Of a stretch of 64,000 nt of DNA, positions 36,163 through 40,046 are shown piece after piece. The DNA comes from Escherichia coli (GTDB taxonomy: Bacteria > Pseudomonadota > Gammaproteobacteria > Enterobacterales > Enterobacteriaceae), in NCBI RefSeq assembly GCF_003334405.1, contig NZ_QOWM01000002.1. One strand, given 5' to 3'. The notes beneath the pieces were generated by a model. The model ran no database searches and was not told the DNA's origin. It saw only the letters and a list, made by a program, of their open reading frames with translations. Both the position numbers and the translations under genes were made by a program. Position 1 is the stretch's first letter. Every line of letters begins with the position of its first letter.

Positions 36163-36495
36163 ATGTATGAAGCTCTTTTAGTAGTTTTCCTTATTGTGGC
36201 AATTGGCCTTGTTGGTCTGATCATGCTGCAGCAAGGTAAAGGCGCTGATATGGGAGCCTCCTTCGGAGCAGGCGCTTCCGCTACGCTGTTTGGTTCAAGT
36301 GGTTCTGGTAACTTCATGACCCGCATGACGGCGCTGCTGGCAACGTTATTCTTCATCATCAGTCTGGTGCTGGGTAACATCAATAGCAACAAAACCAATA
36401 AAGGTAGCGAATGGGAAAATCTGAGTGCACCGGCGAAAACCGAACAAACTCAGCCAGCTGCTCCGGCTAAGCCGACCAGCGATATCCCGAACTAA
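36163..36495 (+). CDS. secG: protein translocase subunit SecG
   Basis: Track ORF 36115..36495; ATG at 36163 gives 110 aa MYEALLVVFLIVAIG... Confidence 0.94.
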   Translation: MYEALLVVFLIVAIGLVGLIMLQQGKGADMGASFGAGASATLFGSSGSGNFMTRMTALLATLFFIISLVLGNINSNKTNKGSEWENLSAPAKTEQTQPAAPAKPTSDIPN

Positions 36496-36509: not shown

Positions 36510-36596
36510 GCCGAGGTGGTGGAATTGGTAGACACGCTACCTTGAGGTGGTAGTGCCCAATAGGGCTTACGGGTTCAAGTCCCGTCCTCGGTACCA
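36510..36596 (+). tRNA. leuU: tRNA-Leu (anticodon GAG)
   Basis: GCCGAGGTGGTGGAATTGGTAGACACGCTACCTTGAGGTGGTAGTGCCC...GGTACCA: long variable arm, GAG anticodon, encoded CCA. Confidence 0.95.
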
Positions 36597-36604
36597 AATT
36601 CCAG

Positions 36605-36638
36605 AAAAGAGACGCTGAAAAGCGTCTTTTTTCGTTTT
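36605..36638 (+). terminator. intrinsic terminator downstream of secG-leuU
   Basis: AGACGCT-GAAA-AGCGTCT hairpin followed by TTTTTTCGTTTT. Confidence 0.75.
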
Positions 36639-37054
36639 GGTCCTGGTCTGAGGAATGGTTGTCAGGTATCTGTATCTCGTCCAGTTGCTTTACTCGTAGC
36701 TGGTACCTTGAAACGATGGTGCCGGTACGCCTTAGTTATAAATTTTTCCCTTCTACTGACATAATTGGCACTTTATTGTGTCAACTCCAGTTCCGGTACG
36801 AATACGGATATGTTTACTTCTCGATAAACCATCCTGCTCCTGTCAGTATAACGACTGATGGCTACGTTCTGCGTAATGTTTAGAGACGCATTGATAATGT
36901 TATTTAATTACTGAGAACGCAATGGCCGCATCATTTAAAAAGAAAAAACTAACAGTGTTTCGTTCTGATATGGATCAGAGTTGAAAAACATGTCTGATAT
37001 AAAATTAAACATTGTTGATAATTGTTTATATTGGTTGTGAACTTGGATTTCTGG

Positions 37055-38680
37055 ATGACAGTATTCAACAAATTTGCTAGAACTTTTAAATCTCATTGGT
37101 TGTTGTATCTTTGTGTTATTGTTTTTGGTATTACGAACTTAGTCGCTTCTTCCGGAGCGCATATGGTTCAGCGCTTGCTGTTCTTCGTTCTGACCATCCT
37201 GGTTGTAAAACGTATATCATCCCTTCCGCTTCGCCTGCTTGTTGCCGCACCATTTGTGTTACTGACTGCGGCAGACATGAGTATTAGCCTCTATTCATGG
37301 TGTACCTTTGGTACAACTTTCAATGATGGATTTGCGATTAGTGTGCTCCAGAGTGATCCGGATGAAGTTGTCAAAATGCTGGGGATGTATATCCCTTATC
37401 TATGTGCCTTTGCTTTTTTATCCCTTCTTTTTTTGGCAGTAATAATAAAATATGATGTTTCCTTGCCGACAAAAAAAGTGACAGGAATATTATTGCTGAT
37501 TGTCATTTCGGGCAGTTTATTTTCCGCTTGTCAATTTGCTTATAAAGATGCAAAAAATAAAAAAGCGTTCAGTCCATATATACTAGCGTCGCGATTTGCT
37601 ACCTATACGCCGTTTTTCAATCTCAACTATTTTGCTTTAGCAGCGAAAGAGCATCAAAGATTACTCTCAATTGCAAACACGGTGCCGTATTTTCAATTAT
37701 CAGTCAGGGATACAGGTATTGATACCTACGTGTTGATTGTGGGGGAGTCTGTACGTGTCGACAATATGTCTTTGTATGGATATACACGCTCTACGACACC
37801 GCAAGTTGAAGCACAAAGAAAACAGATCAAACTGTTTAATCAAGCAATAAGCGGCGCACCTTACACTGCGCTGTCGGTTCCCCTTTCTTTAACTGCTGAT
37901 TCTGTTTTGAGTCATGACATTCATAATTACCCCGACAACATTATTAATATGGCTAATCAAGCAGGATTTCAGACTTTCTGGCTAAGCTCGCAATCCGCTT
38001 TTCGGCAGAATGGTACAGCAGTTACCAGTATCGCCATGCGCGCCATGGAAACAGTTTATGTCAGAGGATTTGATGAATTGTTGTTGCCGCATTTATCGCA
38101 AGCATTACAGCAAAATACGCAGCAAAAGAAACTGATTGTTCTTCATTTAAATGGAAGCCATGAACCGGCTTGTAGCGCCTATCCGCAATCCAGCGCCGTG
38201 TTTCAACCGCAGGACGATCAGGATGCCTGCTATGACAACTCCATTCATTACACAGATAGTTTGCTAGGTCAGGTTTTTGAATTATTAAAAGATCGCCGCG
38301 CCTCGGTCATGTATTTTGCCGACCACGGCCTGGAACGTGACCCTACGAAGAAGAACGTCTATTTTCATGGAGGCAGGGAGGCTAGCCAGCAGGCATATCA
38401 TGTCCCGATGTTTATCTGGTATAGCCCCGTTCTTGGGGATGGCGTGGATCGCACAACGGAAAACAACATCTTTTCGACAGCTTACAATAATTACCTTATT
38501 AATGCGTGGATGGGGGTAACAAAGCCGGAACAGCCGCAAACGCTTGAGGAAGTGATTGCACACTATAAAGGAGACTCACGGGTTGTGGATGCAAACCATG
38601 ATGTTTTCGATTATGTGATGCTCAGAAAGGAGTTTACAGAGGATAAGCAAGGTAACCCCACCCCTGAAGGGCAGGGTTGA
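37055..38680 (+). CDS. yhbX: EptA/EptB-family (sulfatase-like) putative phosphoethanolamine transferase YhbX
   Basis: Track ORF 37022..38680; ATG at 37055 gives 541 aa MTVFNKFARTFKS...; N-terminal TM helices plus sulfatase-type domain; markedly AT-rich. Confidence 0.9.
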   Translation: MTVFNKFARTFKSHWLLYLCVIVFGITNLVASSGAHMVQRLLFFVLTILVVKRISSLPLRLLVAAPFVLLTAADMSISLYSWCTFGTTFNDGFAISVLQSDPDEVVKMLGMYIPYLCAFAFLSLLFLAVIIKYDVSLPTKKVTGILLLIVISGSLFSACQFAYKDAKNKKAFSPYILASRFATYTPFFNLNYFALAAKEHQRLLSIANTVPYFQLSVRDTGIDTYVLIVGESVRVDNMSLYGYTRSTTPQVEAQRKQIKLFNQAISGAPYTALSVPLSLTADSVLSHDIHNYPDNIINMANQAGFQTFWLSSQSAFRQNGTAVTSIAMRAMETVYVRGFDELLLPHLSQALQQNTQQKKLIVLHLNGSHEPACSAYPQSSAVFQPQDDQDACYDNSIHYTDSLLGQVFELLKDRRASVMYFADHGLERDPTKKNVYFHGGREASQQAYHVPMFIWYSPVLGDGVDRTTENNIFSTAYNNYLINAWMGVTKPEQPQTLEEVIAHYKGDSRVVDANHDVFDYVMLRKEFTEDKQGNPTPEGQG

Positions 38681-38687
38681 TGTCGAA

Positions 38688-40046
<1,359 letters not shown>

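Follow-up and report, generated by a model that had tools for sequence, protein, structure and literature searches.

The 416 bp between the secG-leuU terminator and yhbX of Escherichia coli are probably (at about 0.6) the 5' non-coding flank of an Escherichia cassette, with an FNR-type promoter that is masked by H-NS/StpA. The spacer was analysed within a 64,000 nt stretch of contig NZ_QOWM01000002.1 (assembly GCF_003334405.1), here called the window, and all positions are given in its numbering. Only the last ~105 bp before the yhbX ATG would serve as the promoter. An FNR-type box would lie there ~41 bp upstream of the predicted transcription start, in the geometry of a class II activator. 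In the wild type, H-NS and StpA would cover this promoter and block FNR binding, so that yhbX would stay nearly silent; once the silencers are removed, FNR would bind and yhbX would show a modest anaerobic induction. Neither the site nor the promoter anatomy nor a start at yhbX had been described before.

Extent and composition of the leuU-yhbX gap

The features of the region are listed in Table 1. The hairpin of the secG-leuU terminator (PMC2241853) spans 36604-36633 and its T-run reaches 36638. Since leuU ends at 36596 and the yhbX ATG lies at 37055 (E. coli K-12 MG1655), the gap measures 458 bp, 416 bp of which (36639-37054) lie past the terminator. The coordinates of leuU, terminator and yhbX thus confirm the ~416 bp given in an earlier reading of the bare sequence (hereafter the sequence-only reading). 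PGAP annotates no feature within the gap. As that reading had stated, there is no convincing ORF; the sole long one (36659-36883, 74 codons) has a TTG start and no clear ribosome-binding site. The gap is also long, as claimed, without being extraordinary: of the 100 gaps between features within the 100 kb around it, it is the third longest; their median is 69.5 bp, and 5% of them reach at least 400 bp.

AT-richness, which had been claimed for the whole stretch, applies to its proximal part (36881-37054, GC 0.305), whereas the distal part (36639-36880, GC 0.44) is ordinary for intergenic DNA. The proximal value compares with 0.43 for yhbX and 0.52 for the window, and the lowest-GC 174 bp stretch of all 64 kb is 36930-37103 (GC 0.276). 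With a GC content of 0.38, the gap as a whole is the tenth lowest among 43 gaps of at least 100 bp (median 0.426). The alleged richness in A/T tracts disappeared on counting: five runs of at least four A or T compare with 5.3 ± 2.0 in shuffled sequence, and an A/T-run count equal to or above that of the spacer is seen in 29% of all 416 bp stretches.

Table 1. Features between leuU and the end of yhbX, in window coordinates
Feature	Position	Strand	Basis and remarks
leuU, tRNA-Leu(GAG)	36510-36596	+	ARAGORN; Rfam tRNA 52.8 bits; PGAP
secG-leuU Rho-independent terminator, 13-bp stem and T-run	36604-36638	+	terminator scan; fold z -6.4
Distal spacer, GC ~0.44	36639-36853		orphan sequence, most polymorphic part; contains the 74-codon ORF and CTTGAAA
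Block almost without substitutions	36854-36950 (97 nt)		~-158 to -62 from the predicted start site
FNR-type box TGATATGGATCA	36966-36977		context cTGAT-ATGG-ATCAg, 8/10 against TTGAT-N4-ATCAA
Alternative sigma-70-like promoter CTGATA-17-GATAAT	36994-37022	+	predicted start ~37029
Predicted extended -10 TGaTATAAAAT	36995-37005	+	TG 36995-36996; TATAAA 36998-37003 or TAAAAT 37000-37005
yhbX, predicted phosphoethanolamine transferase, GC 0.43	37055-38680	+	PGAP; Pfam PF00884 Sulfatase

Spacer and yhbX form one Escherichia cassette

The spacer and yhbX constitute a single cassette of ~2.05 kb, from 36639 to ~38686, which is specific to Escherichia and sits between the leuU terminator and the argG 3' end. 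Homology to the alternative E. coli locus types and to E. fergusonii breaks exactly at 36638/36639; the terminator is the last sequence common to all locus variants and leuU the left anchor of a variable slot. In two Citrobacter species leuU is followed by argG within ~130-240 bp and yhbX is missing. Among 5426 E. coli genomes, this spacer was found in 5168, an XRE/HTH gene in its place in 237 and the E. fergusonii allele in nine. The latter allele of the cassette is ~70% identical to that of E. coli, against 96% for the flanks; judged by these identities, the cassette is deeply diverged in E. fergusonii. The absence from Citrobacter, the alternative cassettes, the E. fergusonii divergence and the distance of the nearest YhbX relatives outside its own cluster (at most 48% identical) mark it as lineage-restricted, acquired DNA of the kind that H-NS silences. 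Its cargo yhbX has a piN/piS of 0.13 and is disrupted in three of nine genomes and in 7 of 31 sequences.

A leuU-anchored DNA scan for orthologues yielded four loci, none from Escherichia, a peptide scan of genome contigs for cross-species orthologues revealed no relative, and the listing of the first YhbX protein search was dominated by near-identical E. coli sequences. Several apparent relatives were discarded. A YhbX fragment with 74% identity (P0157) came from a bisulfite-converted E. coli contig, all 931 differences being C to T; the distant relatives P0121 and P0122 lie on short metagenome contigs among unrelated neighbours and are uninformative on the spacer; the divergence inside yhbX on metagenome contigs L032 and L044 reflects assembly chimeras.

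The spacer occurs once per E. coli genome. A mobile or repeated element was rejected, the "plasmid" matches being mislabelled chromosomes only and phage matches being absent. No pseudogene remnant was detected in the spacer by tblastn with the alternative HTH protein, by tblastx and blastn comparison with the remainder of the window and with every locus retrieved, or by NCBIfam and Pfam scans of stop-free stretches. A degenerate tRNA or att repeat was likewise dismissed: the best leuU-spacer alignment, at the tRNA 3' end (TCAAGTCCCGTCCTCGGTAC versus TCAACTCCAGTTC-CGGTAC), scores 18 against 16.3 ± 2.0 in shuffles (p 0.26), and no exact repeat of the leuU 3' end exceeds 8 nt in the spacer, the longest (8 nt) equalling the shuffle mean.

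A candidate FNR-type promoter in the last 105 nt

The E. coli and E. fergusonii spacers are unalignable except for the last ~105 nt before yhbX. This stretch has a local alignment score of 34, with shuffled sequence at 24.5 ± 3.7 (p 0.02), and an ungapped test gave p 0.02-0.04, so that the two-species footprint appears only marginally significant (p ~0.02-0.04). Two blocks in it are conserved, TGATATrGATCAG and TATAAAAT; they stand equally far apart in both species, and the 20 nt between them match at 5 of 20 positions. All 8 positions of TATAAAAT agree between E. coli, where it lies at -57 relative to the ATG, and E. fergusonii, where it lies at -53, and the motif is invariant in 40 of 41 sequences.

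The FNR-type box sits within a perfect inverted repeat, TCTGA-N6-TCAGA (36964-36979), and agrees, over 36965-36978, with TTGAT-N4-ATCAA at 8 of 10 positions with its core intact, a level of agreement that is common (39 FNR-like sites with at most two mismatches in 64 kb). The exact core TGAT-N4-ATCA occurs three times in 64 kb, against 1.0 expected. Upstream of E. fergusonii yhbX, the counterpart of the box reads TGATATAGATCA. Of 41 E. coli sequences, 34 keep the box intact; the other seven have ATTA instead of ATCA, mostly with an intact yhbX, and the box is therefore not strictly maintained. Because the dyad is also CRP-like, another protein of the CRP/FNR family may act at the box. Motifs resembling those of Fur, ArcA, PhoP, PmrA, IHF and NarL, sought by eye, were no better than chance in AT-rich DNA.

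The box centre (36971.5) lies 28.5 nt from TAAAAT in both E. coli and E. fergusonii. Transcription would start at ~37011-37013, as predicted from this -10, which would place the box at -39.5 to -41.5; its position near -41 thus follows from the predicted -10. The alternative sigma-70-like promoter was the sole match of a consensus scan and the top of a weight-matrix scan (99.93 percentile), and its -10 is partly kept in E. fergusonii as GATATT. In simple scans, -10 candidates at 37017-37022 and 37027-37032 outscore the extended -10; the box would then lie at ~-57 or -67.

FNR and H-NS/StpA at yhbX

In the supplementary tables of a ChIP-chip study of FNR (PMC3688515), a peak named yhbX is found only in the hns stpA mutant, its value rising significantly from 0.425 to 0.697 (Table S7), and the yhbX +O2/-O2 ratio of 0.46, a 2.2-fold anaerobic induction, is likewise confined to that mutant (Table S11). 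According to the same source, 81% of the unmasked FNR peaks lie in H-NS regions, many of them near -41.5. Our coordinate mapping agrees with the peak "within leuU" of Myers et al. 2013 (PMC3688515), and the "deaD" peak of that study has an FNR box with one mismatch (50658) at a distance of 45 bp. In vivo FNR occupancy, as at class II promoters, is thus provided by the literature (PMC3688515) at a ChIP-chip resolution too low for assignment to one box; the box described above may be the cause of the yhbX peak.

The sequence-only reading had also proposed that a nucleoid protein controls yhbX. This part stands indirectly: FNR peak and O2 response appear only without hns stpA, and the promoter DNA is the AT-richest, with an AT content (proximal spacer against window) as in H-NS-silenced DNA. 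H-NS would then occupy exactly this stretch. The H-NS motif TCGATAAATT has one two-mismatch site in the spacer, at window-wide density. The published H-NS peak tables that were searched by gene name, one of which may list coordinates only, contain no yhbX, b3173 or leuU, and a full-text search of the literature for these three names revealed nothing else relevant. Together, the footprint and the published data (PMC3688515) suggest that the spacer would be an ordinary H-NS/StpA-masked, FNR-type promoter region.

Alternative readings of the spacer

The same DNA might contain a weak constitutive promoter only, the spacer being a neutral leftover, the FNR-like box and its conservation a matter of chance and the ChIP signal a product of opened chromatin. 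The abundance of FNR-like sites with up to two mismatches, the footprint p of only 0.02-0.04, the polymorphism of the box (7/41) and the frequent decay of yhbX to a pseudogene would fit this, as would the fact that a control strain carries a cat cassette at 36744/36745 for use as a linked marker (10.1101/2023.02.03.527047) and the absence of the region from the tables in the main text of the RpoD SELEX study. We nevertheless consider it unlikely, as the spacing from box to -10 is identical in two alleles with randomised sequence in the 20 nt between, the exact core is rare, yhbX appears in both the list of unmasked FNR peaks and that of O2-dependent expression (PMC3688515), and spacer diversity is about one third of that at 4-fold sites. 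A different question is raised by the block at 36854-36950, whose deficit of substitutions the FNR/H-NS promoter model leaves unexplained. In 41 sequences its 97 nt show one singleton substitution, which corresponds to a pi of 0.0005-0.0007; the 4-fold sites of yhbX have a pi of 0.053. The remaining 319 nt of the spacer contain 25 segregating sites (Poisson p ~0.004 on the assumption of independent sites), and 5092 of 5177 genomes (98.4%) agree completely over 36858-36917. The block is single copy and contains an imperfect inverted repeat, CGTTCTGCGTAAT (36865-36877) and ATTACTGAGAACG (36907-36919), with 13-nt arms complementary at 11 of 13 positions, and an A-tract, AAAAAGAAAAAA (36937-36948). 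Across E. coli it has accumulated as few substitutions as the neighbouring tRNA gene, though yhbX is often a pseudogene, and it is unchanged in the ~23% of sequences with a disrupted yhbX. It could thus be an independent functional element, selected irrespective of yhbX integrity, and may be a leader or attenuator hairpin hiding the start of a 20-codon ORF (36922), a regulatory small RNA or a high-affinity platform for another DNA-binding regulator. This we regard as quite improbable. The polymorphism of the spacer is largely one deep two-haplotype split, so that sites are not independent and the true p would be nearer 0.01-0.05; moreover, the block was chosen after inspection of the data, and 28 of its 97 nt served as the search anchor for 31 sequences. 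Indels at 36918-36919 and in the A-tract are common (CG deletion in 6/41, T insertion in 16/41), fold z-scores are -1.55 (+) and -0.90 (-), there is no Rfam match and no promoter/terminator pair, and E. fergusonii has no counterpart. The lack of substitutions in itself makes covariation evidence impossible.

The distal spacer has a pi of 0.021-0.022 with 18 of 215 sites segregating, and nothing corresponding to it was found in E. fergusonii, on plasmids, in phages or elsewhere in the window; these ~215 bp are probably lineage-specific filler, unconstrained and without coding or RNA function. A transcript from a sigma-32-type promoter in this part, either a heat-shock sRNA or a long yhbX 5' UTR, would account for the exact -35 CTTGAAA at 36707-36713, which is followed after 14 nt by CGCCTTAG, and for a genomic-SELEX peak of the RpoH holoenzyme that was attributed to the yhbX/leuU spacer (intensity 3.2 in the published list; PMC5493296). 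It is very unlikely, given that this in vitro peak barely exceeds the lowest listed intensities (~3.0), that the -10 agrees at 4 of 7 positions only, that 36707 is polymorphic (C in 36, T in 5), that the region downstream of the motif is the most variable of the spacer (pi 0.035-0.039) and that the terminator scan found no terminator downstream. The unannotated sRNA for which the sequence-only reading had made room gained no support elsewhere in the spacer either: an Rfam search (E<=10) matched the tRNA and the terminator and nothing else, the terminator scan found no intrinsic terminator inside the spacer, fold z-scores past the leuU terminator range from -2.3 to +1.3, and the distal part is the most polymorphic. 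An own terminator, an Rfam family and a homologue outside E. coli, as of a small-RNA gene, are thus all lacking. A small protein, which had been suggested as well, might be encoded by the 74-codon ORF or by a 20-codon ATG ORF (36922-36984). The frame of the former is free of stops for 95 codons from the leuU end, its last 20 codons have synonymous changes only (3/3), and a few pipelines label parts of it "hypothetical protein". Overall, it carries 10 non-synonymous or nonsense changes against five synonymous ones (piN/piS 0.48 versus 0.13 for yhbX), including W to stop in one of ten strains, and a 6-bp deletion; it has no Pfam or NCBIfam match, and a search of 5.8 billion proteins returned five near-identical E. 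coli-type matches only, two of them named E. coli. The cat cassette of the control strain lies in the middle of this ORF, and in the part of that source considered here no phenotype is reported (10.1101/2023.02.03.527047). A one-base insertion shifts the frame of the 20-codon ORF in three of ten complete genomes and is shared by 16 of all 41 sequences. The spacer ORFs do not show the purifying selection, ribosome-binding site and homologues of a small-protein gene; a real small protein is hardly credible, and the 74-codon ORF is spurious. A 75% identical match to it (P0272) was K-12 sequence fused to unrelated sequence, without a contig on record.

Discussion

FNR sites that are kept silent by H-NS/StpA have been grouped as Category 7, with hlyE and ttdR among the examples (PMC3688515). 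The masked FNR-type promoter proposed for yhbX resembles them in that its box lies in AT-rich, horizontally acquired DNA and in that FNR ChIP signal and anaerobic induction are seen only with hns stpA deleted, yhbX itself being an entry of Tables S7 and S11. It differs from them in its weak induction (2.2-fold) and in its 8/10 box, which is polymorphic in E. coli.

In class II FNR-dependent promoters such as narG, nirB and dmsA, the box is centred at -41.5 and accompanied by a -10 but no -35 element. Similarly, the TGAT-N4-ATCA core at yhbX is located 28.5 nt upstream of TAAAAT/TATAAA without a usable -35, a spacing that is kept in E. fergusonii. In contrast to the class II examples, the yhbX box lacks the outer T and A of its half-sites and the start is a predicted one.

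The locus shares features with the tRNA-associated islets at leuX, pheV and selC: low-GC, variable cargo lies directly downstream of a tRNA gene, and the cargo between leuU and argG alternates between strains and is missing in related genera. Unlike an integrase-mediated island, the leuU cassette carries yhbX alone, with neither an integrase nor a direct repeat of the tRNA 3' end, and its junction lies past the terminator rather than in the tRNA. Cassettes are more likely to be exchanged through homologous recombination within the flanking leuU and argG sequences. Three cargos alternate in this slot, a small hot spot of replacement, and one of the three was imported from E. fergusonii.

By annotation as a phosphoethanolamine transferase with a Pfam Sulfatase domain, yhbX belongs beside EptA, EptB, EptC and OpgE. 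Regulation of that group involves PmrA/BasR, PhoP and sigma-E, whereas no convincing PmrA or PhoP box was seen by eye at yhbX, for which FNR together with H-NS/StpA is the sole experimental regulatory link found.

For genome scans the result is a negative example, in which a long AT-rich gap beside a tRNA gene is probably the silenced front of acquired DNA and conceals neither an RNA nor a peptide gene. The substitution-poor block would count as a modest new regulatory element, should it have a function of its own. Beyond the annotation of E. coli the significance is small. Within it, a candidate promoter with box, -10 and predicted start is now specified for yhbX, a poorly characterised envelope gene, and two published supplementary-table entries are linked to specific bases.

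Locus layout and composition

The window belongs to E. coli K-12 MG1655: over the interval studied here it is 100% identical to NZ_CP184745.1. The genes lie in the order glmM, secG, leuU, yhbX, followed by argG on the opposite strand. The coordinates of the sequence-only reading were exact: 416 bp separate the leuU terminator, which is the subject of the Mohanty and Kushner study (PMC2241853), from yhbX, and 458 bp separate leuU itself from yhbX. Among the 100 gaps of the surrounding 100 kb this gap ranks third in length (median 69.5 bp; 5% reach at least 400 bp), and its GC content of 0.38 is the tenth lowest among the 43 gaps of at least 100 bp (median 0.426). The composition is uneven, with a GC content of 0.44 at 36639-36880, normal for intergenic DNA, and 0.305 at 36881-37054; the 174-bp GC minimum of the entire 64 kb lies at 36930-37103 (GC 0.276). 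The description as long and AT-rich is thus confirmed for the length and for the part adjoining yhbX, whereas the GC content of 36639-36880 is ordinary. The supposed richness in A/T tracts was not found, as five runs compare with 5.3 +/- 2.0 in shuffled sequences.

Coordinates and diversity of features at the leuU-argG locus (window positions unless a contig is named)
Feature	Position	Remark
secG	36163-36495	
leuU, tRNA-Leu(GAG)	36510-36596	
leuU hairpin terminator	36604-36633, T-run to 36638	strong; fold z -6.4
distal spacer	36639-36853	pi 0.022; segregating sites 18/215
substitution-poor block	36854-36950	pi 0.0007; one singleton substitution
proximal 104 nt		pi 0.019; segregating sites 7/104
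AACAnTnTTTC	36951-36961	E. coli-E. fergusonii footprint
TGATATrGATCAG	36966-36978	conserved; FNR-type box
TATAAAAT	36998-37005	conserved; -57 and -53 from ATG in the two alleles
GTyGATA	37014-37020	conserved
GGrTTTnnGGATG		conserved; ribosome-binding/start region
yhbX	ATG 37055, end 38680	pi 0.053 (4-fold sites), 0.0071 (codon positions 1+2)
argG	38688-40031	opposite strand
E. fergusonii-type cassette in E. coli	L003 6043-7912; L023 and L026 3770-5640	contig positions

The spacer and yhbX as an exchangeable cassette

The spacer is carried by 5168 of 5426 complete E. coli genomes, and genomes without it retain just the first 42 nt, i.e. the terminator. Spacer and yhbX give way to an XRE/helix-turn-helix gene, encoded on the opposite strand, in 237 genomes; in nine, the slot is filled by a gene for a 531-aa phosphoethanolamine transferase, whose 273-bp upstream region is unrelated. 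This 531-aa variant is the yhbX normally found in Escherichia fergusonii, where the order is ftsH-folP-glmM-secG-leuU-yhbX-argG; compared with K-12, the left flank of E. fergusonii is 96% identical as far as 36638, past which the spacer is unalignable and yhbX is ~70% identical. The nine E. coli genomes apparently underwent inter-species cassette replacement. All six E. fergusonii-type spacers examined were mutually identical. In two Citrobacter species yhbX is missing, and argG comes within ~130-240 bp of leuU and its terminator. A search of 1.8 billion representatives revealed no YhbX relatives of more than 48% identity outside its own 50% cluster. From this comparison of strains and species, spacer and yhbX therefore act as a single low-GC cassette of ~2.05 kb in a slot for exchangeable cargo. 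Neither an integrase nor a repeat of the tRNA 3' end was found at the locus, and at the right border the last argG codons also vary between the variants; homologous recombination in the conserved flanks is therefore the likeliest route of exchange.

The alternative XRE/HTH gene (317 aa, GC 0.375; contig L002, 6075-7028, minus strand) occupies the locus from window position 36639 onward and has its own bidirectional terminator beside argG. Its product has a long uncharacterised C-terminal part, and one genome carries an IS1 within the gene.

At the other end, the yhbX stop codon lies 7 nt from the opposite-strand argG stop (window 38640-38700), and argG-yhbX is among the overlapping convergent pairs listed by ExcludonFinder (PMC12288877). 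The K-12 yhbX end has a hairpin, CCCTGAAGGGCAGGG, similar to the intergenic terminator of the E. fergusonii locus. A GalR operator predicted 'at yhbX' (PMC5110547), GAGGAAGTGATTGCAC, maps to 38546-38561, within the 3' yhbX coding sequence and outside the upstream spacer.

Some look-alike sequences were rejected. Contig L018 (Logan SRR3359616), which carries protein P0157, seemed to be a relative with 83% identity to the whole region but consists of bisulfite-converted E. coli DNA: across 5599 nt there are 931 differences, every one C->T, and no indels. Such contigs give rise to false 'diverged homologues' in protein collections. Two metagenome contigs with the spacer turn into unrelated, non-E. 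coli sequence inside yhbX (L032 at 37570, L044 at 37443) and are probably chimeric assemblies, not insertions.

Coding and RNA content of the spacer

The judgement that the gap holds no convincing ORF was borne out. The 74-codon ORF starts with TTG and, across 10 strains, carries a 6-bp deletion as well as 10 non-synonymous or nonsense changes (a W->stop among them) against 5 synonymous ones; its piN/piS is 0.48, compared with 0.13 for yhbX and 0.01-0.03 for glmM and secG. Among 5.8 billion proteins it has just five matches, all near-identical and E. coli-type, and it matches no Pfam or NCBIfam family. A cat cassette at 36744/36745, in the middle of this ORF, serves as linked marker in a published control strain (10.1101/2023.02.03.527047). 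A 20-codon ATG ORF (36922-36984) is frameshifted by a one-base A-run insertion in 3 of 10 complete genomes, and by the same insertion in 16 of 41 sequences overall. A small protein, one of the suggested contents, is thus not supported. The same applies to an sRNA: an Rfam search of the spacer revealed no match, a scan found no terminator inside it, its fold z-scores are unremarkable, and no relatives were detected in plasmids, phages, other loci or the rest of the window.

Conserved elements of a predicted promoter and published FNR data

The E. fergusonii allele was used as footprinting partner, as its divergence is so deep that only constrained sequence should remain. The two upstream regions are alignable only in the final ~105 nt (local alignment score 34 versus 24.5 +/- 3.7 for shuffled sequences, p 0.02; ungapped 40-nt test, p 0.02-0.04). 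The core of the FNR-type box, cTGAT-N4-ATCAg, agrees with TTGAT-N4-ATCAA at 8 of 10 positions. TG precedes TATAAAAT in K-12, so that the two make up a predicted extended -10. In both alleles 28.5 nt separate the box centre from TAAAAT, and only 5 of the 20 intervening positions match. With this spacing the box would lie near -41 relative to a start predicted at 37011-37013, the same geometry as in class II FNR promoters. The exact core TGAT-N4-ATCA occurs three times in the window (one expected), two-mismatch FNR-like sites are common there, and ATTA replaces ATCA in 7 of 41 E. coli sequences. The rival sigma-70-like hexamers GATAAT (37017-37022) and TATATT (37027-37032) score higher in simple scans.

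Control by nucleoid proteins, also proposed in the sequence-only reading, finds indirect support in published FNR data (Myers et al. 2013, PMC3688515). A 'yhbX' FNR ChIP-chip peak was present only in the hns stpA double mutant (Table S7; peak average 0.425 -> 0.697), and yhbX responded to O2 only in this mutant (Table S11; +O2/-O2 ratio 0.46). In that study, 81% of unmasked FNR peaks fall in H-NS regions, and many of their promoters have a box near -41.5. Our coordinate mapping agrees with the 'within leuU' peak. A further sequence, TTGATTGCCATCAC (50658-50671, in the gap from nlpI to yrbN/deaD), is one mismatch from the FNR consensus and sits 45 bp from the 'deaD' FNR peak (3306070, Table S5; PMC3688515), a distance that also served to check the mapping. 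PMC5493296 assigns the spacer a weak SELEX peak for RpoH holoenzyme; CTTGAAA at 36707-36713 could explain it, although the -10 paired with it is poor and the site polymorphic.

A substitution-poor block upstream of the predicted promoter

Diversity was analysed in 41 sequences (10 genomes and 31 metagenome contigs obtained via an exact 28-nt anchor). Substitutions are nearly absent from the block. A count that does not depend on the anchor finds 36858-36917 identical in 5092 of 5177 genomes, compared with 1461 of 5119 and 1032 of 5029 for two other 60-nt segments, at which K-12 has minor alleles. Indels do occur within the block (CG deletion, 6/41; T insertion, 16/41). It is single copy, lacks a counterpart in E. 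fergusonii, holds a 13-nt imperfect inverted repeat and folds only slightly better than shuffles (z -1.55). The leuU terminator hairpin has lost 3 nt (AAG, 36607-36609) from its 5' arm in 14 of 41 sequences, so that the A-rich side of the stem is shorter.

The block may be upstream promoter DNA, e.g. an alpha-CTD contact or a silencer platform, or it may be a separate element. Its low diversity may also be due to chance. The polymorphism stems largely from one deep split between two haplotypes and the boundaries were picked after seeing the data, and the real significance is therefore put near 0.01-0.05. Frameshifts or truncations affect yhbX in 3 of the 9 complete genomes sampled and in 7 of the 31 sequences of full length, which makes strong conservation directly upstream mildly puzzling. 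Three sequences, drawn from two spacer haplotypes, share an identical yhbX break with its first stop at codon 265, which suggests a recurrent slip at a homopolymer.

The spacer is an ordinary regulatory region, and the block is the sole point outside this reading. An H-NS/StpA-masked, FNR-type promoter probably lies in the last ~105 bp, and the DNA upstream of it would be unconstrained filler. The AT-rich spacer would form the silenced front end of an Escherichia-specific cassette.
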